A DNA stretch of 64,000 bases from a bacterium (GCA_041946805.1 JBHGBC010000001.1:2866-66865), one strand, 5' to 3'; counted from the stretch's first letter, positions 3,981 to 50,700 are shown. A program made the numbers and translations. The notes: generated by a model not told the origin, from the letters alone.

Positions 3981-4075
3981 GGATGGGTTGGCGCGCAGCG
4001 CGTAACCCATCACATGACCGCCTCATGAACATCACTCTCTCCCCGCGCGGGAGAGAGCCAGGGGGAGGGAAAGCC
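3981..4075 (+). repeat. Mosaic hairpin repeat, copy A (GATGGGTTgGCGCGCaGCGcGTAACCCATC module + CTCTCCC..GGGAGAG hairpin + GGGGGAGGGAAA)
   Basis: Matches the core and accessory modules of other copies (for example the reverse-oriented copy at 37123-37248). Sits at the right boundary of the low-GC R-M island. Confidence 0.65.
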
Positions 4076-4140
4076 TTGCATGAACAATCGATCGGGGAGT
4101 TTCAACCAATGAACCAATCCAGGAAAAATCACGCCCCCCC

Positions 4141-5586
4141 TCACACCCGCTTGCGCTTGCTGGTGGGGAGGATGTCCATCTTCTCGCGGTACTTGGCGAC
4201 CGTGCGGCGGGCGATGTTGAGGTTGTAGTCGCGGTGCAGGATTTCGGTGATTTTCTGGTCGGAGAGGGGCTTGCGCGGGTCTTCTTCCTCGATCAGGGTG
4301 CGGATGATCTCCATGACGCTCTTGGCGGACATGTCGTCGCTGCCGGAGGTGTCGAGGCCGGTGGAGAAGAAATACTTGAGTTCGAACAGCCCGCGGGGGG
4401 TCTGAACGTATTTTTTGTTGACCACGCGGCAGACGGTGGCTTCGTGGATGCCCAGTTCGTCGGCGATGTCGCGCAGCTTGAGGGGGCGCAGGGAGGTCAC
4501 GCCTTCCTCCAAGAAGCCGATCTGCTTGTCCATGATGGCCTTGGTCACGCGGTAGAGCGTGCGCCGGCGTTGTTCGATGTTGCGGATCAGCCAGATCGCG
4601 GACTGGAATTTCTTGCGGATGAACTCGTACTCCTCGTCGGTGATGCCGTCCTTGTTTTGCAGCATCTCGCGGTACTTGCGGCTGATGCGCAGGGGGGGCG
4701 AGCCTTCGTCGTTGACGCGCACCTGCCATTCGCCGTCCACTTTTTCGATGAAAACGTCGGGGGTGATGTACTCCACCGGCTCGTGGTGGTATTGGCGCGC
4801 GGGCCGGGGATCCAGGCCGCTGATGATGTCGGCGATTTCCTGCACGTGCGTTTCGGTGACGCCCAGGGCGCGGGCGATTTCCTTCAACCGGCGGCGTTCG
4901 AGCAGGGGGAGATAATGGCGGATGACGGCGAGGATATCATCGTCATCGATTTCCAGGTTCCGGCACTGGATCTCGAGGCATTCCTGCAAATTCCGGGCGG
5001 CGATCCCCGACGGATCGAAGCCCTGGATGATCTTGAGGATGGCTTCGACCTTTTCCTCGGTTTGGCTGAAGGTCTCGGCGATCTCCTTGACGGTCACGTC
5101 CAGGAAGCCGTCCTCGTTGAGATGGTCGATAATGTATTCGCCGATCTGGAATTCCAATTCGCCGTTGATGGAGATCCCCAGCTGCCAGAGGAGATGATCC
5201 TTGAGGGTTTCTTCCTGCGCCATCTGCATGGTGGTTTCGTCCCCCTCTTCCTCGATGGAAGCCGAAGAGCCATTGCCCACGAAACCCAGGTCGCTGCTGT
5301 CGGTAAAATAATCGGTCCAGTTTTGATCGAGTTCGATATGCCCCAACTCCCGCTCACCGGCCTCACCGTCCAGATCCTCGGGTGTGATTTCCGGTTCCTC
5401 GGTGGAAAGATCGGATGTGCCGGTGAACTCCTCTTCCTCCAACATGGGATTTTCGGCCATCTCCTCCTGGAGCAGTTCGGACAGTTCCAGGGTGGAGAGT
5501 TGCAGCAGTTGGATCGACTGCTGCATTTGCGGCGTCATGATCAGCCGCTGGGTCATTTTTTGTTGGAGTTGTAACCGTTGATCCAT
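4141..5586 (-). CDS. rpoN: RNA polymerase sigma-54 factor
   Basis: 481 aa; N-terminal Gln/Leu-rich region I (MQQSIQLLQLSTLELSELLQEE), acidic linker, and C-terminal RpoN box ARRTVAKYRE. Confidence 0.95.
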   Translation of the reverse strand: MDQRLQLQQKMTQRLIMTPQMQQSIQLLQLSTLELSELLQEEMAENPMLEEEEFTGTSDLSTEEPEITPEDLDGEAGERELGHIELDQNWTDYFTDSSDLGFVGNGSSASIEEEGDETTMQMAQEETLKDHLLWQLGISINGELEFQIGEYIIDHLNEDGFLDVTVKEIAETFSQTEEKVEAILKIIQGFDPSGIAARNLQECLEIQCRNLEIDDDDILAVIRHYLPLLERRRLKEIARALGVTETHVQEIADIISGLDPRPARQYHHEPVEYITPDVFIEKVDGEWQVRVNDEGSPPLRISRKYREMLQNKDGITDEEYEFIRKKFQSAIWLIRNIEQRRRTLYRVTKAIMDKQIGFLEEGVTSLRPLKLRDIADELGIHEATVCRVVNKKYVQTPRGLFELKYFFSTGLDTSGSDDMSAKSVMEIIRTLIEEEDPRKPLSDQKITEILHRDYNLNIARRTVAKYREKMDILPTSKRKRV

Positions 5587-6159
5587 TTAGACTGCCTGTT
5601 AAACCGCGCCTTTCGTTTTCTATGGTGATTATCCAGGTTGGATCCGACCAATCGCAATACATCCGGGATCTATTATAACTCTCAATTAAATTTTCATGCC
5701 AAAAATATCACATGTTGGCGGATCTGTCAATATGCCATGGCTGGCTTCCTCCTGCTTCTTTCTATTCTATGTTCATTTATATCAAATAGTTATAACTTTT
5801 CAGAAATGAGGATTGTGTGGCATTTGAACCGCAAAAATTTTGCTGGAAGATCGCGTGTCCTAGCCTCATTATCTCTCGAAACGCGGATCCGGAATACGGA
5901 ATGCTCTCCCGAAAAAAGATCGGAGGGAATAATGGGAGTCGGCATGAGATTATTTTAAAATTCTATAATTTGACCAGAACTATAATTAATATGCTGTTTC
6001 ATCCGGTTCGGCCGCTTTGTACAGGGACGCGTTGCCATGTGCCCCTTCCATCGACAAACTCCCTATGTATCTCCCCTCTCCCCATGTATGGATTGACGAA
6101 GCCGGGTCCCACCCGTATTCTCGATCCAACCGATTTGAAATGGTCTATTACGTAACGTA

Positions 6160-9607: not shown

Positions 9608-10143
9608 CAGAATATCATCCAGCCAACCATCCGGCGCGATACCGTTAAGCCAGCCGATGATCCATCACGCGCCGGAAATAGCCAACCCAGCCCGGGAAGA
9701 CCGGCCGCCGAAACCGCTTGTCACACACAGCCGCCGGAAACCGCCGCCACCGCAATGCAAATTAAAGCGAATCAATATGTTCAAATAAATCCGATTGAAC
9801 CGGCCCCGGGGGGATACCCGTACGCCTGCCCAAGGATGATACCCCGATTTGGGCTCAGGTGAAACCGGCGTCTGAGTGGGAGAGATGAGTAAAGGGGGTA
9901 GAAATGAGTCATTGATGGCCCTCGAGAAATAACTACAAAATGAAAACGATCTTATTTTTGGATGGAATGCGCAATTTACAAATTGTTTTATAAATTCGAA
10001 AACAGTTACAATGATTCTTCCTTCACTCCAATTTTCACCCGCAGAAAGAGGGGAGCAACTCCTGTTATTAAAATTGATCGCCTGCCGCTGGATTCGGATG
10101 AAGCCGATTATAGAAAAAATAAATAACGCGGCCAGCGGAGTGA

Positions 10144-10362: not shown

Positions 10363-10705
10363 GGCCGTATCACTCTCCGATGGCAATCGGGAACCCAACC
10401 GTACCGCTTCCCGATGCATGGGGACGTTCGCATGCGTACCCACGCTCATCCGTCTATCATAAAAACTCTCCGTGAGAATGAAAGTGGATTCTTGCGGCTG
10501 GGGCGGTTCATCATTCACCTTGAGGGGATCCGTTGAATGGATCCAACGCCTCGAAACCCGCCACAACCACTATTAGGTCCTGTTGAGTTTTCGTACTACA
10601 TGATGATTCACCGGAATTCAGTACTGGGATTCAAGCGCCAATGGCGCGTTAGAATTGCGCCCTGGGCAACGTCCTGGGAAAAGGACGATCAAATGCATAA
10701 TTCCT

Positions 10706-10840
10706 TCTCCCCCTGGGAGAGGATTAGGGTGAGGGAATTATTGTAGGGGCGGACCTTGGTGTCCGCCCGAATTTCATCGAGTGGATGGAATGCCTTCTTC
10801 ACCAGCGGGTACGCACTTGTCGGATGAACCGGAAAATCAG
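10706..10840 (+). repeat. Mosaic hairpin repeat, copy B (core hairpin + GGGTGAGGGAAT + TAGGGGCGGACCTTGGTGTCCGCCCG hairpin + GTACGC..GGATGAACC arm)
   Basis: Aligns module by module with copies at 31365-31500 and 33704-33848. Confidence 0.7.
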
Positions 10841-18153: not shown

Positions 18154-18177
18154 AGGACGATGCCGCTCTCCATTCCA

Positions 18178-18236
18178 CTCCCTCTCTCCCCGGAAGAGGA
18201 GAGGGCTTGGGGCCTGAATCAGGAGGGCCAGGGCGC
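18178..18236 (+). repeat. Mosaic hairpin repeat, degenerate copy C (CCTCTCTCCCC-ggaa-GAGGAGAGGG + GGGCCAGGGCG)
   Basis: Core hairpin plus a degenerate GGTGAGGG-type tail. Intergenic, upstream of the DtxR-family gene. Confidence 0.5.
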
Positions 18237-19592: not shown

Positions 19593-21980
19593 ATGAACCG
19601 AATGAACCAGTCCGCTGCCGCCACTCCGTCATCCCCCACTGACCACCGCCTGGTCCGGGCCGCCCTGGTGGGCAATCCCAACACCGGCAAAACCACCTTG
19701 TTCAATGCCCTGACGGGATTGAATCACAAAGTGGGGAATTATCCCGGCGTCACCGTCGAGAGGAAAACCGGCCGCTTCCTGCGGGACGACATGGAAGTGG
19801 AACTGCTCGATCTGCCCGGCACTTACAGCCTGGCGGCCCGCTCGCCGGACGAGATGGTGGTGGTGGACGTGCTGCTGGGGCAACAGAAGGGCGAGGACCC
19901 CATCGACGCCGTCATCGCCATCGTGGACGCCTCCAACATCACCCGGAACTTCTACCTGGTCAGCCAGGTGCTGGAGTTGGGCCTGCCCGTGGCGATCGCC
20001 CTGAACATGACTGATCTGGCCGAAGCCAAGGGGATTCATATCGACGCCACGGGGCTGTCCCACCGGCTGGGCGCGCCCATCGTCCCGCTTTGCGCGAGCC
20101 GCCGTCAGGGAGTGGAACAACTGCAAAAGGCTCTGCGGGAGGTGTTGGCTCGTACGGATCGAACGCCGATCGAATCCCCCATTTTTCCCGAGAAATTGCG
20201 CCTGGCGCTCTACGAGTTGAAACAGGCCATCCAGGCTGGGCCCGGTCCAGCCGTTCCGGTCCCGGAGCCCAAACTGTTCCGGGCCTTGATCGACACGGGC
20301 GGCTATACCGAAAGACGGCTGGTGGAACAGTTGGGCGAACCATTTCGAGCGAAACTGGCGGCCGCCCGTCAAGCGGCCGGCTATGCGCTGCCCCTCGCCG
20401 CCATCGAAACCAAAACCCGCTACGAGTGGGTTGCGGCTCTTCTGAATCCGTACGTCAAACGGCCCGAAGCGTTGATCCCGACCCGTTCCGACCGGATCGA
20501 CAAAATTCTGACCCACCGTTTCTTTGGCACCGTGATCTTCCTGGGCCTGATGGCTTTCGTGTTCCAGGCGATCTATGCCGGCGCGTCGCCATTGATGGAA
20601 CTCATCGACTTGTTTTTCGTCTGGCTGGGCGGCGGCGTGTCACGCTTCCTGCCCGACGGCGCCCTGCGCAGTTTGTTGGTGGATGGAGTGATTTCGGGCG
20701 TGGGGGCGGTGCTGGTGTTTCTGCCGCAGATCGCCATCCTGTTCTTCTTCATCGCTATTTTGGAAGACTGCGGCTACATGCCCCGCGCCGCCTACCTGAT
20801 GGACCGCCTTCTATCCAAGTGCGGATTGTCCGGCAAATCGTTCATCCCCATGCTCTCCAGTTTCGCCTGCGCGGTCCCTGGCATCATGGCCACCCGGACC
20901 ATCGAGGACCGGCGCGACCGGATCACCACCATGCTCGTCGCTCCCTTGATGAGCTGCTCGGCGCGGCTGCCGGTGTACCTCATCTTCATCGCGGCCATGA
21001 TTCCCGGCCGGGCGGTGCTCGGCGGCTGGGTGGGGCTGCAAGGATTGACACTGTTCGGACTCTATCTGATCGGCATCACCGTGGCCGTTCCCATGGCTTG
21101 GCTCATCAAGTATTTCTTTTTCAAGAACGAATCCTCCCCGTTTGTGATGGAATTGCCTTCGTACAAATGGCCCACGCCCCGCACCGTGGCCCTGTACGTG
21201 TACGACAGCGCCGTCGAGTTCGTGCGCCGGGCGGGAACCATCATCTTCTGCGTGGCGATCGTCGTCTGGGCGCTGGCGTACTTTCCCCATCCCGCATCCA
21301 TCGGCGAAGGGTACGTGCATGCCCGCCGGGCGGCGTGGGAAGAACACGAACGGGACCTTCTCCCCCTATTGCATGCCTTGGATCCCCGACGCTACGGGCC
21401 GGAACTAAGCGGAGAAGCATTGCAAGCGGCGCTGGCGGCGGATATCCGCTTGCAAGACGATGAATCCATGCCCGCCGAATGGCAGCCGGTCCGGGCCCGG
21501 ATCGAGGCCTATCAGGTCCACTTGGCTCGGCTGAACAACCAGGAAGCGGGCGATTATCTCCGGCATAGCTGGCTGGGCCGTATGGGGCACATTATCGCGC
21601 CGCTGGCCGAGCCGCTGGGCTGGGACTGGCGGATCGGCATGGCCACTCTGGCTTCGTTCCCCGCGCGGGAGATCATCGTGGCGGTGCTGGGAACCATTTT
21701 CAACCTGGGGGCGGACGCGGACGAGTATTCGCTCAGCCTCCGCGACGCCATCCGCCAGGCGCGGCGGGATGACGGCCGGCCGCTGTTCTCGATCGCGGTG
21801 GCGCTGTCGGTCATGGTCTTCTTCGCGCTGTGTTCGCAATGCGCGGCCACGCTGGCCACCATCAAGCGCGAAAGCAATTCCTACCGCTGGCCGGTATTCA
21901 CCTTCGCGTATTTGACCACCCTGGCCTACCTGGGCGCGTTGATCACCTATCAGATGGCTTGCCGGCTGGGGTTGGGGTGA
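19593..21980 (+). CDS. feoB: Ferrous iron transport protein B
   Basis: 795 aa; N-terminal G-domain (GNPNTGKTTLFNALTG, DLPGTYS), followed by a long polytopic membrane domain with gate motifs. Confidence 0.95.
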   Translation: MNRMNQSAAATPSSPTDHRLVRAALVGNPNTGKTTLFNALTGLNHKVGNYPGVTVERKTGRFLRDDMEVELLDLPGTYSLAARSPDEMVVVDVLLGQQKGEDPIDAVIAIVDASNITRNFYLVSQVLELGLPVAIALNMTDLAEAKGIHIDATGLSHRLGAPIVPLCASRRQGVEQLQKALREVLARTDRTPIESPIFPEKLRLALYELKQAIQAGPGPAVPVPEPKLFRALIDTGGYTERRLVEQLGEPFRAKLAAARQAAGYALPLAAIETKTRYEWVAALLNPYVKRPEALIPTRSDRIDKILTHRFFGTVIFLGLMAFVFQAIYAGASPLMELIDLFFVWLGGGVSRFLPDGALRSLLVDGVISGVGAVLVFLPQIAILFFFIAILEDCGYMPRAAYLMDRLLSKCGLSGKSFIPMLSSFACAVPGIMATRTIEDRRDRITTMLVAPLMSCSARLPVYLIFIAAMIPGRAVLGGWVGLQGLTLFGLYLIGITVAVPMAWLIKYFFFKNESSPFVMELPSYKWPTPRTVALYVYDSAVEFVRRAGTIIFCVAIVVWALAYFPHPASIGEGYVHARRAAWEEHERDLLPLLHALDPRRYGPELSGEALQAALAADIRLQDDESMPAEWQPVRARIEAYQVHLARLNNQEAGDYLRHSWLGRMGHIIAPLAEPLGWDWRIGMATLASFPAREIIVAVLGTIFNLGADADEYSLSLRDAIRQARRDDGRPLFSIAVALSVMVFFALCSQCAATLATIKRESNSYRWPVFTFAYLTTLAYLGALITYQMACRLGLG

Positions 21981-21992
21981 AAGGAGAACCTC

Positions 21993-22274
21993 ATGGATTG
22001 GCAGGAACTCATCGCATTGCTCATCGCCGCCGCCTGCGGGTATTCCGCGTTTCGCTCGTTCCGGGCCTCCTGGAAGGGACAGGGCGGGTGCGCGAAATGC
22101 CCCGCGGGCAAGCCCAAGCCGGTGGGGATTGGCGGGATCGGCTTACCGGGGAAGAAGATAGATCCAGCTAAGTACAAGGAAAAAATAAACATCTCTTCCC
22201 TCACCCCAATCCTCTCCCAGAGGGAGAGGGAGCAGAAACGAGACCCGTATCATTTTCCGAAAAGTGGTTTGTGA
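21993..22274 (+). CDS. FeoB-associated Cys-rich small membrane protein; 3' end extended into a repeat element
   Basis: MDWQELIALLIAAACGYSAFRSFRASWKGQGGCAKCPAGK is one TM helix plus a Cys-rich tail, as in FeoB-associated Cys-rich proteins. AAGGAGAA RBS 5 nt upstream. The last ~25 codons (..ISSLTPILSQREREQ..) are encoded by repeat copy D. Confidence 0.55.
   Translation: MDWQELIALLIAAACGYSAFRSFRASWKGQGGCAKCPAGKPKPVGIGGIGLPGKKIDPAKYKEKINISSLTPILSQREREQKRDPYHFPKSGL
22194..22233 (-). repeat. Mosaic hairpin repeat, copy D (reverse orientation: TCCCTCACCC..CCTCTCCC-agag-GGAGAGGG)
   Basis: Core consensus. Lies inside the 3' end of the small ORF that follows feoB. Confidence 0.7.
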
Positions 22275-26296: not shown

Positions 26297-26304
26297 TTCT
26301 GGTC

Positions 26305-31843: not shown

Positions 31844-32815
31844 TCATTCCGGCTTGGAGTGAATGATTTCCCGAATGACGTAGGTTTTTTTGCGTTGGCT
31901 TTCGTGGTAGACCCGGGTCATCATTTCCGCCAGCAGGCCGATCATGATGATCTGGATTCCCACCAGCGCGAAAAAGACCGCCAGCAACAGGAAGGGATTA
32001 TTGGAGGCCTTGTCGCCTTCGAAAAATTTCTCGTAGGCCACGTCCAGCGCGCAGACGGCGGCGGCCAGGTGGAAGAGCATGCCAATGCCGCCGAAAAAAT
32101 GGCTCGGCCGGGTGAGGAAATTCCCCAACAAAACGAGCAGCGGCAGGTCGAGGAGCACCTTGATGATCCGGTTCAGCGAATACTTGGACTTGCCGCGCAG
32201 CCGGGGGTGATGGGTGACCTCGACTTCGGCGATGCGCGCGCCCATCCAATGGCCCAGGACGGTCAGGAAGCGGTGCATTTCGCCGTACAGGGAAACGCGG
32301 TCCAACACCTCGCGCCGGTAGGCCTTCAGGGTGCAGCCGTGGTCGTGGAGGTGGACGCCCGTGATCCAGGAGATGATCCAGTTGGCGATCCGGGACGGCA
32401 GGCGCTTGGAAAGAAACGGATCTTTCCGGTTTTTCCGCCAGCCGCTGACGATGTCGTAGCCTTCGTCCAGTTTCTTAAGCAGTTTGGGGATATCGCGGGG
32501 ATCGTTTTGCAGGTCGGCGTCCATGAGGATGAGGACGTTTCCCCGGGCGTGATCGATGCCGGCGGCGATGGCGGCGGTCTGACCGAAATTCCGCCGGAGC
32601 ATCAGCGCCTGGATGCCGGGATGGTTCCGGGCGATGTCTTCCAGTACGCGCGGCGAGCCGTCGCGGCTGCCGTCGTCGCAGTAAATGATCTCGTAGGACA
32701 GGCCGGTGGCTTCCAACGCCGGGCGCAAGTCTGCCTGCAACGGGAGGAGATTGTCCTCCTCGTTGTAGACCGGTATAATCACCGAGAGTTGGGGAGCGGG
32801 GGATTGTTCGTTCAT
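31844..32815 (-). CDS. GT2 polyprenyl-phosphate sugar transferase (GtrB/ArnC/dolichyl-phosphate mannosyltransferase-like)
   Basis: 323 aa; LSVIIPVYNEEDNL...YEIIYCDDGSRDGS...LMDADLQNDP (DxD), followed by two C-terminal TM helices. Confidence 0.85.
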   Translation of the reverse strand: MNEQSPAPQLSVIIPVYNEEDNLLPLQADLRPALEATGLSYEIIYCDDGSRDGSPRVLEDIARNHPGIQALMLRRNFGQTAAIAAGIDHARGNVLILMDADLQNDPRDIPKLLKKLDEGYDIVSGWRKNRKDPFLSKRLPSRIANWIISWITGVHLHDHGCTLKAYRREVLDRVSLYGEMHRFLTVLGHWMGARIAEVEVTHHPRLRGKSKYSLNRIIKVLLDLPLLVLLGNFLTRPSHFFGGIGMLFHLAAAVCALDVAYEKFFEGDKASNNPFLLLAVFFALVGIQIIMIGLLAEMMTRVYHESQRKKTYVIREIIHSKPE

Positions 32816-33062
32816 GATCCTGGATGGGTTACTCTACGGCGTGGGCGCACACCGGTCAATCCACGACGATTCCGTGAGCGACGGCCACGCCCACGGCCGC
32901 AACGCCGGTCAAGGGCGCGTGGGAGTAACCGGTAAGCCCCCGTGGTTCGGGCCGTGAGGTCGGGGGAAAGGCAGCATCTTGCGTTTTTGGCGGCGATGGA
33001 TAGGATGACAGCGGCTCTCGGGATTCAAGATCCCAATTTCATGGGGAAGGTGGTAAACCGGA

Positions 33063-33506
33063 ATGGATAGAGATTTGCGGAGCAACTTGTACGAGTATGA
33101 AATCAACCGGTTTCAGGAGTTGTTGAAGGACAACCGGGAATACGCGTTTCAGCGTTACGGATGGACCGTGTTTTACAGTCTGCCTCCCGAGCAGACGTTT
33201 CAGTTGAAGAACGAACTAGGCTGGAAGGGCAACGAACCCTTGGATTTATACAACCTGGGAGCGCTGGAATGTCAGAACGGCAATCTGAAAGAGGCCATGA
33301 AGTATTTCGAGAAGGCGGAAAACCAGGGATGCACCGCGCCGGAATTGTATTTCAACATCGCGGCCATCCACGAAGAGCAGCAAGAGACGGCCAAGGCCAA
33401 GGCGTATTATCAGAAATACATCGACGCGGCCGAAAAATGGGATGAGATCCCCAAGAGCCTGCAAAAAGAACTTGATGAAATCCGCGAGCATATTAAAAAA
33501 TTATAA
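33063..33506 (+). CDS. Small TPR-like protein (hypothetical), in a lower-GC patch
   Basis: 147 aa; LGALECQNGNLKEAMKYFEKAENQG..ELYFNIAAIHEEQQETAKAKAYYQKYIDAAEK. Local GC is clearly lower than the flanking DNA. Confidence 0.4.
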   Translation: MDRDLRSNLYEYEINRFQELLKDNREYAFQRYGWTVFYSLPPEQTFQLKNELGWKGNEPLDLYNLGALECQNGNLKEAMKYFEKAENQGCTAPELYFNIAAIHEEQQETAKAKAYYQKYIDAAEKWDEIPKSLQKELDEIREHIKKL

Positions 33507-33703
33507 AAGTAAAATATAAGAGGGGGATTCCCTCCCTGGGGCTCAATCTCCCTTCGGAGATTCCGATAATAAGCTGGCGCGGCCGGCTTATTTCTTTTTC
33601 GGATCATTCGGCAAATGCGTGCCTTTTATATCGAATAGCTCGCTTGTTCAGATGGCTGGATGGCGACTCTTCGAGTTGATCGCTCAGAATCACTCCCAGA
33701 ATC

Positions 33704-33848
33704 CGCTCTCCCTCTGGGAGAGGGCCAAGGTGAGGGAATTGTGGTTGGGAGGTCCTTGGTCTCCACCCGTACCAGCAATTGGATGGCCTGCCAGTTCACC
33801 ATCCATGCACGCGCAAACCGGAAGAATATCTTTCGGACAACCGGTGTG
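33704..33848 (+). repeat. Mosaic hairpin repeat, copy K (core + GGTGAGGGAATT + GGGAGGTCCTTGGTCTCCACCC + CATGCACGCGCAAACCGGAAGAAT arm)
   Basis: Module order is identical to copies B and I, with compensatory changes in the hairpin-2 stem. Confidence 0.7.
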
Positions 33849-34043
33849 TCTGGGAGGGGCTACCCGGACGCAGTGAGGGATATGATAAACCAGATCAAGC
33901 CGCGGACCATAACTGTATATAAATTGAGAATTTCGTATTGCACTCAGGTTGGATTCATGCTATGGTGAACAATCGTCTGATCCGGACAAGGATCTATGCG
34001 TGTGTGAAATGAGAGGGACTCCTGGGTAGAATTTCGCGGTCGC

Positions 34044-35936
34044 ATGGAGGCAGCCAGGAAAATGCGTTGTTTGTTTCGAGGATGGAGAGGTGTGTTCGTT
34101 GGTTTGGCGATTGGATTCAGCGGCGCTTGGCCGTCGCACGGCGCGGCGATTCCCAAGCTGGATGTCATCCGGTGCGCGGACTACGTGAATTACACGCAAT
34201 TGGCTTTCGAGATCACCGAAAAAGGCGCTCTGGAAACGAAGATCTACCCGTTGCGCACCGGCAAGGCGCCCATTCTGATCGTGGAACTCAAAGGCGTACA
34301 GACGGGTCTGATCAGCAACGACTGCCATCTGGACGGCACTTACATCCGTAAAGCCTCGATTTCCTATAGTTCACACTACGATACGCTCACCGTCACGATC
34401 CCTTGTCATCCCAACGTCAACCTGGAGGGAATGGTTTGGAACGTCTGGGAAGACATGGTGACGGTGGATATACCCCTGTTCGAGCCGAATCACGCCTTTG
34501 TTCCCCCGGTGGACGAAATCCAGAAGCACAAGGAAAAAGGGGGGAAGGTGGTGGTGTTGGATCCCGGCCATGGAGCGTTCCATGACAACGACGGGGGGGA
34601 TTACATCCGGTATCCCCGCCTGACCGAGAAAGAAGTGGTGCTGGACCTGGGCTGGCGGATCAAAAAATTGATGGATCAGGATCCAAAGTTGTTGACTTTG
34701 TTGACCCGTTACGGCGACTATCTGCCGGTGCCTTTCGGTTTGAAGGGCCGGACCCGGGAGGAGTACAAAACCGCATCGTTGAGCTACCGGGTGCAACTGG
34801 CCAAGGAATACCTGGGAGACGCGTATATCTCGCTGCATTTGAACGCCATCTCGGGACCGCGTCAGAAAACCGCCAAGGGCTTCGAGGTGTATTTCCTGGG
34901 CGAAGAACACGCCAATGATCTGGTCAACAATCCGGACGTGGAGGAGTTGAGCCTGCTGGGGATCGAAGAAGAGGGAAAGAAAGACAGTGAGTTGTCGAAC
35001 GTGCTGCTGCTGATGAACAAGGATTACGTACAGCAGCAAAGCATCAACCTGGCGGCCACGATCACCCGGGAGGTGGCGGGGCTGCCCTGGATCACGCTGC
35101 GCGAACGGCCCATGAAATCCCAGCGGTTCGTGGTCTTGCGCCAGTTGGTGATGCCGTCGGTGTTGGTCGAGTTTTTGTTCCGCACGCATCCGCAGGAGCA
35201 CGAATACATCCGGAGCGCCCGCAACCGCAACCAACTGGCGGAAGCGGTCTATAAGGCGGTGAACGCGTTCTTCTTCGAACCGGCGAAGCCTATTCCTCCC
35301 GATATCTATTCACCCCGGCCGGTGGAGATCGCCCATGCCGCGCAGACTCCCACGGTGCAAGCGCCCAAACCGGCGCCCAAGGCGACTCCCGTTCCCAGCC
35401 GCGGCCCCGTGTATCACACAGTCAAATCGGGCGAATCGTTGAGCGCCATCGCCAGCCGGTACGGCGTTTCCACCACCCGCCTGCGCCAACTCAATCCGGG
35501 CAAAATCGACAAGCGCAACCGGATCGACCGGGGGGACCGGTTGTTGATCTCCCAGGGAACCGCCCGCTCCGCCGCGGCCGCACCGGCTAAATCGACCTCA
35601 TCTTCGGAGCCGCGGCATGACATCGTCTTCACCTATACAGTCAAGTCCGGAGACACGTTGGGCACGATCGCCGCGAAATACAGCTCCACCGTGGAAGAGC
35701 TCAAAACCTTCAACCGCAAGCGGTCGATCCAGATCAAGCCGGGAGAGAAGTTGCGGATTCCCGGCCACCGTGATATCCGCCTGGCTTCCGCGCAAACCAC
35801 CGAGTACAAGGTCCAGCGCGGAGATTCGCTGGATGAGATCGCGAAACAATACAAAACCACACCCCAGCGGCTCAAGAGTTTGAACCGCCTGCAAAAATCC
35901 ACCATTCATCCCGGGCAGGTCTTGCGCGTGCGGTGA
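34044..35936 (+). CDS. N-acetylmuramoyl-L-alanine amidase (Amidase_3) with three C-terminal LysM domains
   Basis: Signal peptide. Amidase_3 core (VVLDPGHGA..DNDGG; SLHLNA; GFEVYFLG). LysM repeats YHTVKSGESLSAIASRYGV, YTVKSGDTLGTIAAKY and YKVQRGDSLDEIAKQY. Confidence 0.85.
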   Translation: MEAARKMRCLFRGWRGVFVGLAIGFSGAWPSHGAAIPKLDVIRCADYVNYTQLAFEITEKGALETKIYPLRTGKAPILIVELKGVQTGLISNDCHLDGTYIRKASISYSSHYDTLTVTIPCHPNVNLEGMVWNVWEDMVTVDIPLFEPNHAFVPPVDEIQKHKEKGGKVVVLDPGHGAFHDNDGGDYIRYPRLTEKEVVLDLGWRIKKLMDQDPKLLTLLTRYGDYLPVPFGLKGRTREEYKTASLSYRVQLAKEYLGDAYISLHLNAISGPRQKTAKGFEVYFLGEEHANDLVNNPDVEELSLLGIEEEGKKDSELSNVLLLMNKDYVQQQSINLAATITREVAGLPWITLRERPMKSQRFVVLRQLVMPSVLVEFLFRTHPQEHEYIRSARNRNQLAEAVYKAVNAFFFEPAKPIPPDIYSPRPVEIAHAAQTPTVQAPKPAPKATPVPSRGPVYHTVKSGESLSAIASRYGVSTTRLRQLNPGKIDKRNRIDRGDRLLISQGTARSAAAAPAKSTSSSEPRHDIVFTYTVKSGDTLGTIAAKYSSTVEELKTFNRKRSIQIKPGEKLRIPGHRDIRLASAQTTEYKVQRGDSLDEIAKQYKTTPQRLKSLNRLQKSTIHPGQVLRVR

Positions 35937-35974
35937 CGCGCCGGGACAACATATCCATTCACCCGATCAAATCC

Positions 35975-36008
35975 CACCCCCGGTTGACGCTCGCCGGGGG
36001 TGGTTTTC
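35975..36008 (+). terminator. Rho-independent terminator after the amidase gene (9-bp perfect stem CACCCCCGG/CCGGGGGTG, 10-nt loop, TTTT)
   Basis: Read directly from sequence. It is immediately followed by a TGGTATACT extended -10-like element at 36009-36017 and the radical-SAM gene ATG at 36025. Confidence 0.6.
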
Positions 36009-36024
36009 ATGGTATACTCCTGGC

Positions 36025-37101
36025 ATGTTTGCGAACGGTCCCCGATTGCGATACTTGATTTACTACATCACCTCGCGCTGCAACCTGCGGTGCGAGCACT
36101 GTTTCTATCTGGAGGAATTGAACAAGCATGACGAAATGACCCCGGAGGAAATCGGGCGGGTGGCCCGCGGCGTCCATCCCTTGCCCTTCGTACGGGTGAC
36201 CGGCGGCGAGCCTTTTCTCCGCAAAGACTTGCCCGAAGTGCTCCAGGCCTTTTACCGCCACGCCGCCACGCGGCGGATGGGAATCATCACCAACGGAACC
36301 CGCCCGGCGTGGGTGGAGGAATCGGTCCGGCGGCTGCTGGAACTATGCCCGGAGTTGGCGGTGGACGTGGGAGTCTCGATCGACGGTTTGGAGGCCACGC
36401 ATGACGCCATCCGGAGGCTGCCCGGTTCGTACGCCAAGGCGCGGGAAACAGTGGAGCGGTTGAACGCATGCAAATCCGGCTTGGCCAACCTGTTGACCTC
36501 CATCGTCATGACCGTCACCGCGAGAAACGAATCCCAGCTGGACGAATTGTATGAGGAAATGGCCGGGTTGGGGGTGGACCGGTTGTCCGTCAATCACGTG
36601 CGCGGCAAGGTGCATGATCCCTCCCTGCTGGAGATTTCATTCGACAAGTACCGGGAGTTCGCCGAGCGGTGCGAGCGGTACCACCTGGACCGGGACCGGA
36701 GTTGGAAGGCGGGCGTCCAACGGGCCAAGAACCGCCTGGCGCGCGCGGCCATCAACCAGGTGGCCCGGGGCGAGCCTTCGGATATTCCCTGCCTGGCGGG
36801 ATCGGCGATCGGCGTGCTTTACTCGGATGGGACGGTATCCCTGTGCGAAATGCTGGAAGATGAACTGCCGGCGGGGAACGGCGGAGGCGCGGCCCATCCC
36901 CGCCTGGGTAACGTGCGCGAGACCGGATATGATTTTTATGCCATTTGGAATTCCGAAAACACGCAACGCTGCCGCGAGTGGATCGCCGCGACCCGCTGTT
37001 CCTGCACCCACGAATGTTTCCTGACCGCCAGCATCCTGTTCAATAAGCGCAATTACCCCCGGTTGTTCAAGGAGTGGGTGCGGCAAGGGGTGGGGCGGTA
37101 G
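36025..37101 (+). CDS. Radical SAM enzyme with C-terminal SPASM/twitch-like Cys cluster
   Basis: CNLRCEHCFY (Cx3Cx2C) near the N-terminus, GGEPFL glycine motif, and C-terminal cysteines (CLAGSAIGVLYSDGTVSLCEM ... CREWIAATRCSCTHEC). No precursor peptide ORF is evident nearby. Confidence 0.8.
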   Translation: MFANGPRLRYLIYYITSRCNLRCEHCFYLEELNKHDEMTPEEIGRVARGVHPLPFVRVTGGEPFLRKDLPEVLQAFYRHAATRRMGIITNGTRPAWVEESVRRLLELCPELAVDVGVSIDGLEATHDAIRRLPGSYAKARETVERLNACKSGLANLLTSIVMTVTARNESQLDELYEEMAGLGVDRLSVNHVRGKVHDPSLLEISFDKYREFAERCERYHLDRDRSWKAGVQRAKNRLARAAINQVARGEPSDIPCLAGSAIGVLYSDGTVSLCEMLEDELPAGNGGGAAHPRLGNVRETGYDFYAIWNSENTQRCREWIAATRCSCTHECFLTASILFNKRNYPRLFKEWVRQGVGR

Positions 37102-37122
37102 GTGGCTTGTATTCCAAATGAT

Positions 37123-37248
37123 GGTGGGCCACGCGCCGCTATGAGCCCACCCTGCAACCTGTAGTGAGAGTTGATGGGTTACACGCTGCGCGCGAGCCCA
37201 TCCTGCGTTTTCTTCCCTCACCCTAGCCCTCTCCCAGAGAGAGAGGGG
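37123..37248 (-). repeat. Mosaic hairpin repeat, copy N (reverse: GGTGGGCC..GCCCACC hairpin + GATGGGTTACACGCTGCGCGCGAGCCCATC + reverse core)
   Basis: The GATGGG..CCCATC module is the reverse complement of the copy-A module (about 27 of 30 nt). Core is TTCCCTCACCCTAGCCCTCTCCCAGAGAGAGAGGGG. Confidence 0.7.
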
Positions 37249-37274
37249 ATTTGGAGCTGGTTTTCATCGATCAC

Positions 37275-39998
37275 TCAGCGGGGCCGGGTGGGCCAGGGCG
37301 TGGGGTGGATGTAGAGATGAGAAACGTCGATCACGCCGAGATCCGTCGCCTGGTCCGCGTTGACTTCCACTTCGGACAATATTTCCTGCCCCATGGCTCC
37401 TCCTTCCATCGTATAAAAACAAAACAACTGGTAGCGCCCCGGGGGGACGTTGTCGATCTGAAAGCGTCCCGATTCCGGTTGGGTGGTGGGATAGACCGCG
37501 TCGAAATAGGCCGGGCGGTCCAAATCATTTCCGGTCAGGCGCAGTTCCTTGATGTTGGAATACAAATGGTAGGGGCGGAGCACGCCGTACACGATGCCCT
37601 GGCCTTGGCGGGTCAGGCGGATTTCCAGCGGTTTCACGACGCCGGGAGATTCGAAACCGATTTCCTGACGGGCGTTGACGTAACCCTCGGCCTCGATGGT
37701 AACCAGGTATTCGCCCGGCAGGGGGGCGGAAAACGAAAAGACTCCCGGCTGTCCGGCGTCCCAAACGCCTTCACGGAGGGACCAGTTCAAGAAGTTGGTG
37801 AATTCGGGGAACCGATAACCAAGCGAGGCCTTGAACTCGGTCAGGGGTTGGTTTGTGGCGCCGTCCCGCACCGTGCCGAGAATGCCGCCTTCGGGTTGCA
37901 GGGAAATCAGCAGATCGCGGGAACCCGGTTCCACGGGCACCAGATAGGCGAAGAACGCGCCAGTGGGGAAGATATCCCGCGTGGATCGCAGGGGAAACGG
38001 CCATACGTATTGGGAATCGCCATACCAGGCCATGATCTGTAAGGTGCTGATAGGATAAACATTTTCGATGACAAACCGGCCTTGGGAGTCCGTTTCGGCG
38101 GTCTGGAATTCGGCGCCCATGAGGAGGACCATGGCGCCGCGGGCGGGATTTCCATCAGGGAGCAGGACCGTGCCGGAAAGCATGTCTCCCTTGTGGAGGA
38201 TGAAATTCTCGTTAAGGACTGTTTCTCCGGCGATTTCCACGAAGCGCAGCTGGTATTCATATCCAGGGGCCCGAACGGCCACGGCCACTCCGTTTTGCCC
38301 GTTGTATACCTCTTCAGGAATCGTGGCGGGTACGTGCTCGAGCCGGTAGCGGCCGTCCGGCCCGGAAGTCACGCTGCGCGATTCGGATCGGTCCTTGTAC
38401 ACCTTCATCGTGATCTGGGCCTGGGGGATGGGGTGGTTCATGGTGTCGGAGATCCGCCCTTGGATCGTGAGTCCCGAGGTCAGGATCAGGTCGATGTTCT
38501 CGAGACGGTCGCCTGCGGAAAACTCGAGCCGCCCGCTGAATCCCGCCGCGTAATCGGAGTGGTGGGCCATGATCCGCCCCTGATCCTTGCCTGATTTGGG
38601 GATTTGGCGGAACGGGGCAAGACGAGTGAAGGCGTAATCGCCTTCCGCGTTGGTGCGCACCGGAGGTTGTGCCTGCCCATGGCCGATCCACTCGACCTCG
38701 GCGTTCGCGATGGGCTCTCCTTTCTCGTTCCGGACATGGCCGGAAACCGAACCGAAGGGCTCCAACTCCACGGTCATGTTCTCCAAGCCTTCGATTGGTA
38801 CCTGAACGGGCAGGGAAGCCGGGGCGAAGAGTGCTGTGTCACTGGCGGCCGCGCGCAGGATGTACCGGCCGGGAAGCACCGTCTCGAAAACGAACCGTCC
38901 TTCCGGGCCGCTCTGGGCGCGGGCGGCCTGCACCTGGAAGGCTTGACCCAGGCGGAAATCCAGCAGTTCGACGGGGATGCCGGAGATAGGCTCGCGGGTT
39001 TGTTGGTTCAATACCACTCCGGAAACGGGGACTGGCCGGCTTTCAAGGATCAAGGTCACTTCATGGACGGCATGGGTGATCTTCAGTTCGATTTTTCCGG
39101 GGGGATAGCCGGTGGCTTCGGCCACAAGCGTGGCCGGCTGGGGCGGAATATCCGTGAAATAGAAACGCCCATTGGGCGACACCGGCGCGCGATACAAGAT
39201 CATCCCCCGCTCTCCCCGGCTGGTCAGCGAGACCGCCGCGCCGGGCAGGGGATGGCTCCAGATGTCGAGCACGGCGCCTTCGATCCGGGCGAGCCGGGTC
39301 AGGACGATGGCTTCCTCACGGTCGCCGTCCAGGAGAAGGCTTTTTTCGGAAACCAAGTAATTATCCGCCGAGACCGTGAGGCGGTAATGGCCCGCCGGCA
39401 GTCCTTCGAAGAGGAACGATCCATCGGCGCCGGATTGGGCGTTCCAATGTTGTCCCGGCGTGGCCAGGGTGATTGCGGCGCCCGCGACCGCGGATTCGGA
39501 GGACGACAATACCCGGCCGGAAAGCAAATACACGGGCGGACGCAGGATCAGCGCCACCGATTGCTCCCGGGGAGACGAAGCGGTGATTTGGACCGTGGCC
39601 TCGCTGGGGCTGTAGCCGGCGGCGGCGGCGGAGACACGGAATTCGCCCGGCATGAGGATCATCAAGCCGCATCGGCCCTGGGTGTCGCTGACGGCCGTGT
39701 GAAAATACGGCCGCTCGGAGGTGGAGGACAAGGTCACCCGCGCGCCGGATACCGGTTGTCCCTCCGAATCCGTGATGAGACAGTTCACGGAGTAGGCGGT
39801 GCTGGGGAACAAGTTCGAGGGCGTTGAGGAAACCGGCGTGGCGCGTGGGAGCAAGGGAAGGACCGGCGTGAGCGCCTTGGCGAGTCCCGGCGTGGCGGTA
39901 TCCGGTCCTGAATCCGGCATCCACAGGGCGGTTAAGATCAAAGCGCCCAGACTAAGGATAAACAGTAACGCGAGCAATACCGGCAGAAAATTTTTCAT
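37275..39998 (-). CDS. Large N-terminally anchored protein made of about 9 carboxypeptidase-regulatory-like (CarbopepD_reg) beta-sandwich repeats
   Basis: N-terminal TM helix (MKNFLPVLLALLFILSLGALIL), then repeated units of the form G..V.L......TD..G...L..PG.Y...A.A.GY. Start is most likely the ATG at 39998; the ORF track extends to 40094. Confidence 0.7.
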   Translation of the reverse strand: MKNFLPVLLALLFILSLGALILTALWMPDSGPDTATPGLAKALTPVLPLLPRATPVSSTPSNLFPSTAYSVNCLITDSEGQPVSGARVTLSSTSERPYFHTAVSDTQGRCGLMILMPGEFRVSAAAAGYSPSEATVQITASSPREQSVALILRPPVYLLSGRVLSSSESAVAGAAITLATPGQHWNAQSGADGSFLFEGLPAGHYRLTVSADNYLVSEKSLLLDGDREEAIVLTRLARIEGAVLDIWSHPLPGAAVSLTSRGERGMILYRAPVSPNGRFYFTDIPPQPATLVAEATGYPPGKIELKITHAVHEVTLILESRPVPVSGVVLNQQTREPISGIPVELLDFRLGQAFQVQAARAQSGPEGRFVFETVLPGRYILRAAASDTALFAPASLPVQVPIEGLENMTVELEPFGSVSGHVRNEKGEPIANAEVEWIGHGQAQPPVRTNAEGDYAFTRLAPFRQIPKSGKDQGRIMAHHSDYAAGFSGRLEFSAGDRLENIDLILTSGLTIQGRISDTMNHPIPQAQITMKVYKDRSESRSVTSGPDGRYRLEHVPATIPEEVYNGQNGVAVAVRAPGYEYQLRFVEIAGETVLNENFILHKGDMLSGTVLLPDGNPARGAMVLLMGAEFQTAETDSQGRFVIENVYPISTLQIMAWYGDSQYVWPFPLRSTRDIFPTGAFFAYLVPVEPGSRDLLISLQPEGGILGTVRDGATNQPLTEFKASLGYRFPEFTNFLNWSLREGVWDAGQPGVFSFSAPLPGEYLVTIEAEGYVNARQEIGFESPGVVKPLEIRLTRQGQGIVYGVLRPYHLYSNIKELRLTGNDLDRPAYFDAVYPTTQPESGRFQIDNVPPGRYQLFCFYTMEGGAMGQEILSEVEVNADQATDLGVIDVSHLYIHPTPWPTRPR

Positions 39999-42554: not shown

Positions 42555-42850
42555 TGTTTTTTGAGCGCCAACGGCGCGGCCTGAGCATAGCCCGGCGCGT
42601 AAGCCCTGAGATGGTTGCGTGAAAAGTAAACAATCCCCTTTCCCTCCGGGAGAAGGCCTGGGTGAGGGAAAGCCTTTTCGCTTTGTTTTACTTCTACCGG
42701 TTGCGTATATCCTTTCGCTTATCGGTAAAATAAGTCCCTTCAGGGGACGGCTTTATGGCAGCCCAGGGGATCAACCCGGGGCCAATTGCCTCGTGTGTAC
42801 GAGCTCGTGTGTACGCGCTTCCCGGATGAATCCCAAAAGTCTTACAAGGA
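42551..42850 (+). repeat. Mosaic hairpin repeat, copy M (longest: GTAATGTTTTTTGAGCGCCAACGGCGCGG.. left arm + core + GGGTGAGGGAAAGCC + hairpin + GTACGCGCTTCCCGGATGAAT arm)
   Basis: The left arm is about 85% identical to copy J. The right arm GTACGCGCTTCCCGGATGAA is identical to copy I. Begins at the stop codon of the GmhB-like gene. Confidence 0.75.
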
Positions 42851-43150
42851 CGTCATTCCCGCGCAAGCGGAGATCCCAGGGTGTTTTGTCCGATATTTCC
42901 ACGAATAAAACCGTGGTCTCTTATTGTGCCGCCCTCTGAGGCGGACGAGCTGACTTGCCCAGGACGACTTTCGCCCTTCCGGGGCGGAGCACCATCAGCC
43001 CCGGATTGCAATCCGGGGAATTCCCGCGTCCCATGACAACCCATCATGAAAACGACCTCCTTACCGCGAATCGATTGGCGTTCTCCCGAATCATGGGGCA
43101 GGTTCGTGAGGCTCAATCCTCCCCACCGGCTTTCGGGAAGGGTTGACCGG

Positions 43151-49675: not shown

Positions 49676-49785
49676 AATTTTGTACCCAGGCCGCGCCGGG
49701 CCGGCACGGCGGTAATGGACAGTATGAAAAAACATCATACGTAGTTTGCGGTGATTGGACAATCTCTTTGTGAAAAAAAGTTCGG

Positions 49786-50484
49786 TCAGCCGGTGAAGTG
49801 GATGAAGTTGCGTCTCCCATCCTTCCAGCCGAACGAGAGAACCCGGCCGGTTTTCCCCCCCACCGTATATTCCCGCTGGTAGGTCTGGTGCAGGTGGCCG
49901 TGGACGATCACGTCGATGCCGGAGGCGATGATGGACTCGTAGGCGCGGCGGGGAACCTCCAGAGTGGACGCCGCCTTGCCCGCGACCAGCACCGTGCTGG
50001 CCTGAGAGAGCCGGCGGGCGGTCCGGTGGCGCAGGGGGGCGGGCAATCGATCGGCCAGGAAGCGGAACGGACGGGAGCGGATGACCGTTTTGTAGACCTG
50101 ATACGCCCAGTCGTTCCAGCACAACTCATCCCCATGGCCAATGTACACCGCCCGTCCGCCCAGTTCGGTGACCGTGGGATTCGCCAGCACGTCAATCCAG
50201 GGCTGTTCGTCGAAGTAATGGCTGGCCAGAAAATCCCGGTTGCCTTCGATAAAGAACAATTGGATGCCTTCCCGGTCCCAGCGCCGCAAGCGGTCCAAAA
50301 AAAGCGAGTAGCGGGTTTGCAGAAAAGGAGGATCGTTGACCCAGAAATGAAAAATATCGCCGATCAGGAAGATGCGGCGGGTATCGGGCGGGATTTCGTT
50401 CAACAACCGTTCGATTTCCTCCACCTCCCCGCCGGGGTGATGCAGATCGCTGAAAAAAACGTTTTCTCCGGATGGTTGATTCAT
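49786..50484 (-). CDS. lpxH: LpxH-like metallophosphoesterase (UDP-2,3-diacylglucosamine diphosphatase-like)
   Basis: FFSDLHH, RIFLIGDIFHFW, GNRDFL, IGHGDE, HGHLH; the spacing of these motifs matches calcineurin-like LpxH. Confidence 0.7.
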   Translation of the reverse strand: MNQPSGENVFFSDLHHPGGEVEEIERLLNEIPPDTRRIFLIGDIFHFWVNDPPFLQTRYSLFLDRLRRWDREGIQLFFIEGNRDFLASHYFDEQPWIDVLANPTVTELGGRAVYIGHGDELCWNDWAYQVYKTVIRSRPFRFLADRLPAPLRHRTARRLSQASTVLVAGKAASTLEVPRRAYESIIASGIDVIVHGHLHQTYQREYTVGGKTGRVLSFGWKDGRRNFIHFTG

Positions 50485-50550
50485 CAGCTTCTGGATTAGA
50501 GAAGGAGATCCACTCCATTGTTGGTCAATCAAGTCCTCATGCTTTCGTGT

Positions 50551-50700
50551 GCCGGGCTTTCCTTTCCTCCCCCTCCAGAAGAGGGGCTGGGGGAGGTGAA
50601 ATCCTTACAACACCCTGAACCATTGTCATCTCTGCCATCTCCACCATAAACCAAACACCAAACCATTGTAGGGGCACGTTGCTATGTACCCCTGCGGTAA
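50551..50700 (+). repeat. Mosaic hairpin repeat, divergent copy O (CCTCCCCCTCCAGAAGAGGGGCTGGGGGAGGTGAAAT + TGTAGGGGCACGTTGCTATGTACCCCTGCGG hairpin-2 variant)
   Basis: Shares the core architecture and the TGTAGGGGC.. hairpin-2 opening with copies B and I. Confidence 0.5.

Follow-up and report, generated by a model that had tools for sequence, protein, structure and literature searches.

The subject of this study is a short repeat that recurs between the genes of a 64,000-nt stretch of bacterial DNA (GCA_041946805.1 JBHGBC010000001.1:2866-66865), referred to below as the window, with all coordinates counted from its first letter. Its closest described counterparts are elements of Escherichia coli and other Enterobacteria whose names, BoxC and PIT, reportedly go back to Bachellier et al. 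in the 1990s and Hoyne et al. in 2000; an earlier PIT study is said to have found the motif in Synechocystis as well. The function of the BoxC/PIT/TMECO elements has been an open question since the 1990s. Under the name TMECO, for which BoxC and PIT (potential intrastrand triplex) element are the earlier designations, the motif was defined by the pattern 5'-CCCTCNCCC N3-6 GGGNGAGGG N3 GGGNGAGGG-3', in which one mismatched triplet is tolerated (Holder et al. 2015, PMC4666352). In E. coli K-12 the 23 copies all lie between genes and favour neither strand; their linkers are of two types, TTA and CCG, and an inverted pair always has one of each (PMC4666352). The isolated E. coli strand folds in vitro into a triplex of high stability, as seen by circular dichroism (CD) and nuclear magnetic resonance (NMR), the latter with 18 imino signals (PMC4666352). 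The loci carrying the motif in E. coli vary more between strains than control spacers do, copy loads that differ between strains have been reported for both E. coli and Enterobacter, and the published range covers 262 proteobacterial genomes with a maximum of 143 copies per genome (PMC4666352).

Two other descriptions bear on the same type of sequence. Kaplan et al. (2016, PMC5100583) presented the same E. coli loci as HPG1/HPG2, a switch between G-quadruplex, hairpin and duplex, on the basis of CD evidence and comparable predicted energies. In Enterobacter sp. 638, 100 palindromic repeats of the form CCCTCTCCC-xx(x)-GGGAGAGGG were noted at gene 3' ends, and a role in termination was presumed (Taghavi et al. 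2010, PMC2869309). In the literature that we searched, no later functional work on BoxC was found beyond Holder 2015 and Kaplan 2016.

The repeats of the window are this lineage's version of the BoxC/PIT/TMECO class II purine-motif intrastrand triplex motif. A preliminary description of this DNA had considered that they could be an undescribed element, a proposal that is withdrawn here because the unit fits the published pattern and matches thousands of E. coli genomes. What is new is the Omnitrophota-like host, the record density of copies, the evidence from covariation and polarity, and the breadth of the exact core.

Anatomy of the repeat and its place among known elements

Copies were collected with an nhmmer profile built from the window copies, which gave 12 strong copies (E 2e-13 to 4e-8) and 3 decayed ones. 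The 21-nt pattern GGGAGAGGGNNNGGGTGAGGG, allowing up to 3 mismatches, matches 13 times where 0.10 matches are expected (dinucleotide-preserving shuffles; 0/100 reach 13), and GGGTGAGGG by itself matches 12 times (0.99 expected), which bears out the earlier view of a dispersed repeat family well above chance. A repeat search of the window also recovered the family, on both strands. The strong copies are confined to 4-43 kb of the window (12 per 64 kb, or about 1 per 5 kb), with the G-rich strand on + in 8 and on - in 4, and all 12 lie between open reading frames (ORFs) backed by Pfam hits and/or high GC content at third codon positions (GC3). The two orientations and the intergenic position of every copy had been recognized correctly, and a unit is indeed present at all 14 of the positions listed at that time, although those at 18178 and 50555 proved in the profile search to be relics and not intact copies. 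Chance, a CRISPR array and a tandem or simple repeat were rejected as readings of the units, the spacing being irregular for an array, and so was a coding repeat of one gene family, because the units are outside supported genes. Rfam covariance models at the gathering threshold gave 0 matches across the whole window.

The aligned consensus, about 40 nt long, is (A)ATC-CCCTCTCCC-tct-GGGAGAGGG-YYR-GGGTGAGGG-AA(A). Arms 1 and 2 are complementary 9-mers that make a 9-bp hairpin, with a loop of 3 nt in 11/12 strong copies and 5 nt in one. A third arm, also of 9 nt, sits 3' of a 3-nt linker and is mirror-related to the purine arm; read backwards, it differs from the purine arm only in having T for one A. 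Because of that mirror relation, every base of the third arm is able to form a reverse-Hoogsteen triad (G*G:C, A*A:T or T*A:T). Among the strong copies, 11 have 7-9 full triplets out of 9, and the remaining one, at 31691-31730, has 5. The unit had been described as a hairpin with an imperfect 7-9-bp stem, a 4-6-nt loop and a G-rich tail; with the full 9-bp arms, the loop has only 3 nt in 11 of the 12 copies, and the tail is a third arm that mirrors the purine arm. Linkers of the strong copies are TTA or TTG in four cases, CCG or CCA in five and other triplets in three, while the 5' flank is AATC or TGCT. Fold z-scores of the units, -0.0 to -1.9, are uninformative because shuffled C-rich and G-rich strings pair too.

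The TMECO pattern fits the window consensus and 2 of the copies exactly, with the remaining copies 1-3 substitutions off, and the best window copy is identical to E. coli sequences at 27/27 arm positions. In a blastn search, the 45-nt window unit matched 48,648 places in 4702/5426 complete E. coli genomes, with a median of 9 per genome and 80-95% identity over 42 of 45 nt; no annotated features are given for the 10 matches listed, and an example of an E. coli match is an inverted pair within the entC-fepB spacer. The shared traits are: three 9-nt arms in the same order, with a loop of 3-6 nt and a linker of 3 nt; two linker types, and inverted doublets that pair both types; a strictly intergenic location in both orientations, beside genes of unrelated function; and many copies with one imperfect triplet, together with a copy number that differs strongly between close relatives. 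The differences are equally specific. The host here is an Omnitrophota-like uncultivated bacterium and not a proteobacterium; window units all end in GGG-AA(A), a minor variant, as the optional last position of the published pattern admits G, T, C or no base but not A; the 5' flank is AATC/TGCT, as opposed to TTTTCT in enterobacteria; and the window doublets have spacers of 120-190 bp instead of less than 50 bp. The assignment to the known BoxC/PIT/TMECO kind is unchanged by the new results.

The repeats of Enterobacter sp. 638 have the same hairpin core and likewise occur in clusters of two or three at gene 3' ends, but the paper described the hairpin only and left the third arm unnoted (PMC2869309). 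The unit also resembles H-DNA in the mirror symmetry of its two purine blocks and in its purine-motif triads; it differs from H-DNA in that the Watson-Crick partner is a pyrimidine arm on the same strand, and for this reason its fold needs single-stranded DNA and not a supercoiled duplex.

An extended form of the unit was seen at five loci outside the window (L175, L207, L149, L208 and L145), where it makes up a long palindrome, CCCTCACCC-NNN-CCCTCTCCC-loop-GGGAGAGGG-NNN-GGGTGAGGG, so that both strands hold a triplex unit around one hairpin. This form may correspond to the original 56-bp description of BoxC.

Constraint on the third arm and competing structures

The relationship between the arms was examined in a register test on 2.9 Mb of fetched DNA, in which 119 perfect pyrimidine/purine hairpins of 9 bp have cores that are asymmetric and depart from the consensus. 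A fully triad-compatible block lies three bases downstream in the mirror register for 25/119 of these hairpins (12 cores, 20 loci), compared with 0/119 in the direct register and 0 for an upstream control block. When the third arms were permuted among the hairpins, on average 2.0 were compatible, with a maximum of 8-9 in 2000 trials. Examples of compensated variant cores are CCTTCTCCC/GGGAGAAGG/GGATGAGGG, CCCTCCCCT/AGGGGAGGG/GGGTGGGGA and CCCCCTTCC/GGAAGGGGG/GGGGGATGG. The polarity of the hairpins is also strict: counted as pyrimidine-first v purine-first, they are 12 v 0 in the window and 13 v 0 among the relatives, with 8 v 0 for an unselected sample and 219 v 4 across the genome loci. Three-way compensatory changes are expected of a purine-motif triplex, whereas neither a plain hairpin nor a direct repeat nor a G-quadruplex leads one to expect them; they support the triplex. 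The covariation of the third arm is comparative evidence for selection on the triple helix, or on something that reads it.

The same data bear on the proposal that GGG-AGA-GGG-YYR-GGG-TGA-GGG forms a three-tetrad G-quadruplex (G4) in competition with the hairpin, as part of a G-quadruplex/hairpin/duplex switch. The first and third of the variant cores given above keep their triads while their G3 tracts are broken, which suggests that G4 potential is not the conserved trait. The consensus is nevertheless a canonical G3N3G3N3G3N3G3 that follows a complementary C-rich tract, and pairs occur on opposite strands, as in HPG1/HPG2, for which CD evidence and comparable energies were put forward (PMC5100583); in addition, the isolated G-rich part is predicted to fold as an RNA G4 at -12.6 kcal/mol (ViennaRNA). 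However, the predictions clearly favour the hairpin once the C-arm is present (-19 v -12.6), NMR of the full E. coli sequence gave a triplex and not a G4 (PMC4666352), and the comparative data obtained here favour the triad over conservation of G-tracts. We regard a G4 switch as very improbable.

Alternatively, the unit might work at the RNA level, as a terminator or as a 3'-end stabiliser like that of the repetitive extragenic palindromes (REPs), in which case the third arm would be incidental. The position of the copies agrees with this in part. Of the 12 strong window copies, 7 are in convergent spacers (24-114 nt from stop codons), 4 in tandem and 1 in a divergent spacer, so that the earlier statement that the units are usually found at gene ends holds. 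Where the GC content of the genome loci is <= 0.56, copies are over-represented in convergent spacers (16/41 copies versus 22/114 spacers) and under-represented in divergent ones (4/41 copies versus 25/114 spacers). For these counts, ORFs were allowed to begin only beyond a unit, and the low-GC subset was used, as the longest-ORF caller had placed 167/397 copies inside ORFs (the largest of 1262 aa) that are spurious where GC content is high. For the RNA hairpin of the consensus, -19 kcal/mol is predicted, and the presumed termination role in Enterobacter sp. 638 points the same way (PMC2869309). Against these points, the hairpin is not followed by a T/U run whichever strand is read, and in co-directional spacers no sense/antisense bias was found (43 v 43, constrained ORF calls). 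Moreover, a plain hairpin leaves both the pyrimidine-first polarity and the mirror covariation of the third arm unexplained. Earlier work, as it is summarized by Holder et al. (PMC4666352), attributed neither promoter nor terminator activity to PIT elements in E. coli and held that RNA does not form purine-motif triplexes. An RNA-level role is decidedly improbable. A terminator scan of 21900-37400 returned 22 terminator-like sites, none of which is a triplex unit, the tails of the units being GGG-AA or AGCAGAAA. An intrinsic (Rho-independent) terminator was rejected as a class for the unit, which is a GC-rich hairpin without a T/U run.

It is extremely improbable that the unit is a binding site at which a nucleoid-associated protein or a regulator reads the duplex sequence. 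High conservation of the sequence across taxa and an intergenic location would be expected of such a site, and both are seen. Yet the arms are mirror-symmetric and not dyad-symmetric as is typical of sites for dimeric binders, distances to starts or promoters are not fixed (24-460 nt in the window; 10-310 nt in E. coli, PMC4666352), and no known transcription-factor motif matches in E. coli (PMC5100583). The functions of the flanking genes are also unrelated, including in the window rpoN, feoB, gpsA, thyX and genes for an amidase, a radical SAM enzyme and tetratricopeptide repeat (TPR) proteins.

Very probably, then, the best explanation overall is a triplex-forming structural DNA repeat of the BoxC/PIT/TMECO kind that is self-propagating or tolerated. 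When the G-rich strand becomes single-stranded (as lagging-strand template, in a transcription bubble or during repair), arms 1 and 2 would pair into the 9-bp hairpin, and the third arm would fold back antiparallel on the purine arm by means of the reverse-Hoogsteen triads named above. The product would be a class II purine-motif intrastrand triplex, which in vivo is expected to be transient and to exist on single-stranded DNA. The unit is non-coding and occupies sites that tolerate insertion, for the most part between the ends of convergent genes; most likely it is a structural repeat, self-propagating or tolerated, and not a regulatory signal of the host. Its effect on the cell, if any, might consist of local polymerase stalling and raised local instability, as proposed for E. 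coli; in the literature, the motif strand stops polymerases in vitro.

Host range, turnover and spread

The best named relatives of the GpsA and the UvrD-type helicase of the window are metagenome-assembled genomes (MAGs) of Candidatus Omnitrophota, with 68-69% identity, while metagenome relatives reach 84-92%. Because of these matches the host appears to be an uncultivated Omnitrophota-like bacterium, as judged from best matches and not from a phylogeny. An exact look-up of the RpoN of the window gave no record, probably owing to the choice of start codon. A syntenic relative, L002 (GCA_029563695.1), carries 6 units within 11.3 kb; on the short contig L308 there is 1 unit together with the same accessory modules, differently ordered; and another relative, L327, has 2 decayed units in 18 kb. 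A ThyX search for close syntenic relatives gave best full-length matches of 55-66% identity, and the contigs were used as an unselected density control: these 805 kb of ThyX-bearing metagenome contigs hold ~5 units, or ~1 per 160 kb. With ~1 per 5 kb, as against ~1 per 200 kb in E. coli K-12, the density in the window is ~40x that of E. coli K-12 and ~6x that of the published record holder, as estimated from ~100 kb of the lineage. Judged on these ~100 kb, the Omnitrophota-like lineage displays a strong expansion and a record density.

Restriction to this window had been named beforehand as fatal to the idea of a dispersed repeat; the family is not so restricted, as it occurs in the relatives and far beyond. 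The exact 27-nt core was found in at least 120 IMG/VR stretches and at least 120 stretches of species-representative genomes, and among the matches listed it occurs in >15 bacterial phyla. The hosts listed include Planctomycetota, Chloroflexota, Acidobacteriota, Verrucomicrobiota, Cyanobacteria, Myxococcota, Thermodesulfobacteriota, Nitrospirota, Elusimicrobiota, Bacteroidota, Actinomycetota and Omnitrophota, in addition to many Pseudomonadota. Cultured isolates with the exact core include Archangium minus, Leptolyngbya PCC 6406 and Geomonas propionica, and isolates of Myxococcota, Cyanobacteria and Desulfobacterota are among them. Across taxa, only the three arms are common, and loops and flanks are lineage-specific.

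A side observation concerns orientation. In the IMG/VR loci (L006-L125), the G-rich strand of the unit is on the C-skewed strand in 119 versus 65 cases (p ~8e-5), whereas in the genome loci no bias with respect to local GC skew was found (102 vs 91). The IMG/VR bias is not backed by gene orientation, and related prophages could have caused it through pseudo-replication. In seven of the loci (L009, L010, L019, L038, L053, L071 and L083), related phage-like structural clusters have the unit at a conserved intergenic position in the morphogenesis module.

Comparison of orthologous spacers shows how single copies behave. L001, L002, L003 and L004 have no counterpart of the unit at 23671-23709 in the orthologous spacer. 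The aligned region 21950-22560, which includes the first inverted doublet described below, shares 95% identity with L002; in this region identity is 93.7% for the units and 92.4% for the remaining spacer sequence, so that the units are no better conserved than their surroundings. In the 3' spacer of gpsA, L002 keeps the left unit, and in L327 (UvrD 91% identical) only a decayed left unit is present, the spacer and the right unit being absent. These comparisons mean that copies are inherited, decay and get deleted, and that the load differs greatly between relatives. As the family consensus stays intact while single copies drift, ongoing generation from source copies is suggested.

The window has two inverted doublets, both in convergent gene spacers. 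In the first (22196-22463), two units are arranged tail-out around a 190-bp spacer; in the second (24993-25190), a type A-like and a type B unit flank a spacer of 120 bp. Both doublets mix linker types (TTG at 22196 on - with CCA at 22424 on +; TTG at 24993 on - with CCG at 25151 on +), and the ends of their inner spacers resemble each other.

These doublets might be the replicative form of a non-autonomous element, of the REP/REPIN type or a MITE (miniature transposable element with inverted repeats), moved in trans by a RAYT-like or other HUH single-strand transposase. The units are dispersed and intergenic, form a lineage-specific burst, differ in presence or absence between relatives (23671-23709) and co-occur with REP-like hairpins that have a GTAG head, and the combination of neutral single-copy decay with an intact consensus is the classical signature of amplification from source copies. 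Short GC-rich intergenic hairpins, inverted doublets, mosaics, a position at gene 3' ends and lineage-specific bursts are likewise traits of REPs, their bacterial interspersed mosaic elements (BIMEs) and REPINs. However, the triplex unit has a third arm, and a core common to >15 phyla (again among the matches listed) is unlike the lineage-specific REPs. It has no GTAG head; the heads seen in the window belong to a separate repeat, GTAGGGGCGGACC..., and the flank of the unit itself is AATC or TGCT, so that the unit does not have this trait of a REP/BIME. A GTAG head is typical of RAYT-associated REPs. No transposase or RAYT is encoded in the window, and no RAYT recurs in the 240 motif-bearing loci that this search covered. 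All-against-all clustering of 6402 ORFs from these 240 loci revealed no linked transposase or other enzyme family recurrent beside the copies, since only ABC ATPases, phage structural genes and mug recur. Neither a target-site duplication nor a clean empty site was seen, and Holder et al. found no association of the E. coli copies with transposons, phages or plasmids (PMC4666352). Movement by such a transposase is, in our judgment, unlikely; it is compatible with the preferred explanation of a self-propagating or tolerated triplex-forming repeat and constitutes its most interesting open point.

The former characterization as REP/BIME- or MITE-like is right in one half, as the mosaics are BIME-like, and without direct support in the other: single units have no terminal inverted repeats or target-site duplications around them. 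A MITE was rejected for the ~40-nt unit, whose flanks contain neither; the 198-268-bp doublets do have inverted ends, and no target-site duplication or empty site was found for them. For a mobile (MITE) or regulatory small element, as once suggested, we see no direct support: terminal inverted repeats, target-site duplications, a nearby transposase, a T-run and an orientation bias are all missing.

A bolder version, which we consider quite unlikely, is that of a pan-bacterial, actively generated element whose propagation depends on the triple-helical fold itself. It would fit several of the results: the common core in >15 phyla among the matches listed, with its lineage-specific flanks; the strict polarity; the joint change of three arms; and the neutral drift of orthologues. 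If it were true, there would have to be a widely distributed enzyme, or a replication or repair process, that recognises or produces an intrastrand DNA triplex, and the Omnitrophota-like lineage, with its ~1 unit per 5 kb, would offer the best natural setting in which to look for it. For the long-standing question of BoxC/PIT/TMECO function, the present data offer a sharper, testable handle.

Returning to the reading of the units as BoxC/PIT/TMECO structural repeats that fold into a triplex, a number of points weigh against it. In vivo footprinting with dimethyl sulfate (DMS) in E. coli gave no protection, leaving the triplex unproven in living cells (PMC4666352). Most loci in the register test were fetched because they hold a perfect unit; the variant cores recur and may be sub-families, so that not all events are independent; and most window copies have 1-2 imperfect triplets. 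A crude, constrained ORF caller underlies the statistics on gene context, and the density estimate comes from ~100 kb of a lineage and not from a genome. As regards spread, for the unit at 23671-23709 no clean empty site or target duplication was found, the spacer being unalignable beyond a promoter-proximal block.

Individual copies, accessory repeats and neighbouring genes

Several copies illustrate the range of preservation. The first strong copy (4033-4072, +) reads CTCTCTCCC-cgcgc-GGGAGAGAG-cca-GGGGGAGGG-aaa, with 9/9 Watson-Crick pairs and 7/9 full triplets, and is in the convergent spacer between the 3' ends of the Eco29kI-type endonuclease gene and rpoN. The copy at 10699-10738 (+), CCTTCTCCC-cct-GGGAGAGGA-tta-GGGTGAGGG-aat, occupies a tandem spacer with both neighbouring genes on -. 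The first doublet consists of a left member at 22196-22233 (-), with the type A-like linker TTG, downstream of feoB and a small Cys-rich ORF, and a right member at 22424-22463 (+), with the type B-like linker CCA, 60 nt from the stop codon of the aldo/keto reductase gene; both have 8/9 full triplets and an orthologous copy in L002. Between the aldo/keto reductase gene and gpsA, in a divergent spacer, lies the copy at 23671-23709 (-), whose linker is CCG. The sole perfect copy of the window, with 9/9 triplets, is CCCTCTCCC-tcc-GGGAGAGGG-ttg-GGGTGAGGG at 24993-25031 (-), downstream of gpsA; it is the left member of the second doublet and has an orthologue in L002 and a decayed one in L327. The right member (25151-25190, +; linker CCG, type B) is 56 nt from the stop codon of the ORF 25243-26073 (-).

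The remaining strong copies lie further along. The unit at 31360-31398 (+), ACCTCTCCC-ttt-GGTAGAGGG-tta-GGGTGAGGG, lies between the thyX start and the stop codon of a GT2 glycosyltransferase gene, and shares this spacer with the most diverged strong copy (31691-31730, +; 4 mismatches, 5/9 full triplets). The copy at 33700-33739 (+) is between a TPR gene and a LysM amidase gene, and two further copies are in convergent spacers: 37213-37251 (-; 8/9 full triplets), between a radical SAM gene and a 939-aa CarboxypepD_reg gene, and 42632-42671 (+), between genes for a HAD-like hydrolase and an 863-aa TPR protein. Of the relics, that at 18176-18210 (+; E 4e-4) follows directly after a TPR gene stop and has a recognisable hairpin part, its third arm being lost; that at 50565-50596 (+; E 5e-5) reads TCCTCCCCC-tcc-AGAAGAGGG-gct-GGGGGAGGT; and that at 10018-10054 (-; E 0.013), CCCCTCTTTC-tgc-GGGTGAAAA-ttg-GAGTGAAGG, is heavily decayed.

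The triplex units share intergenic spacers with three other short hairpin repeats, resulting in BIME-like mosaics. The first of these, GTAG-GGGCGGACCTTGGTGTCCGCCC, is a REP-like hairpin with 7 strand-matches versus 0.39 expected; copies are at 10742-10769, 31403-31430, 33743-33770, 26194-26216 and 163-186, and in three spacers the hairpin is directly 3' of a triplex unit. The next, GGATGGGTT-(GC-rich loop)-AACCCATC, is found at 3981-4012, 23731-23760 and 37172-37203, each time ~10-30 nt from a triplex unit, as well as in the relatives L002 and L308. The last, AGCGCCAAYGGCGCG, is found ~50 nt upstream of three triplex units (10634-10648, 31625-31639 and 42564-42578); it has 4 matches versus 0.11 expected, and two related copies are present in L308.

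Units can also mislead gene prediction. False ORFs had been attributed to them before, and three ORFs that read through units were found in the window: 33660-33968 through the unit 33700-33739 (ALPLGEGQGEG), 42619-42939 through 42632-42671 (PFPPGEGLGEG) and 21993-22274 through 22196-22233 on the other strand (SLTPILSQRERE). The last of these is the small FeoB-associated Cys-rich ORF, in which the stop codon TAA of L002 is GGA here, adding a '...SSLTPILSQREREQKRDPYHFPKSGL' tail. The units should be masked in annotation, as in the window they create or extend at least 3 ORFs, and they explain the PLPxGEGxGEG and LTPxLSxRERE peptides in hypothetical proteins.

Three further observations concern the genes around the units. 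A low-GC island at 1699-3934 (0.50 versus ~0.60 elsewhere) has genes for a Vsr mismatch endonuclease, for a C5 cytosine DNA methylase and for a restriction endonuclease of the Eco29kI type; together they make up a complete type II restriction-modification module, whose origin is probably horizontal. The adjacent ORFs 25243-26073 and 26305-27153 are paralogous, with a 209-nt stretch that is 72% identical, and have no Pfam hits; at their position, L327 has a single ORF of 260 aa. Finally, the 515-aa ThyX encoded at 29685-31232 has two Thy1 domains, either fused or duplicated, and its length is kept in many metagenome relatives.

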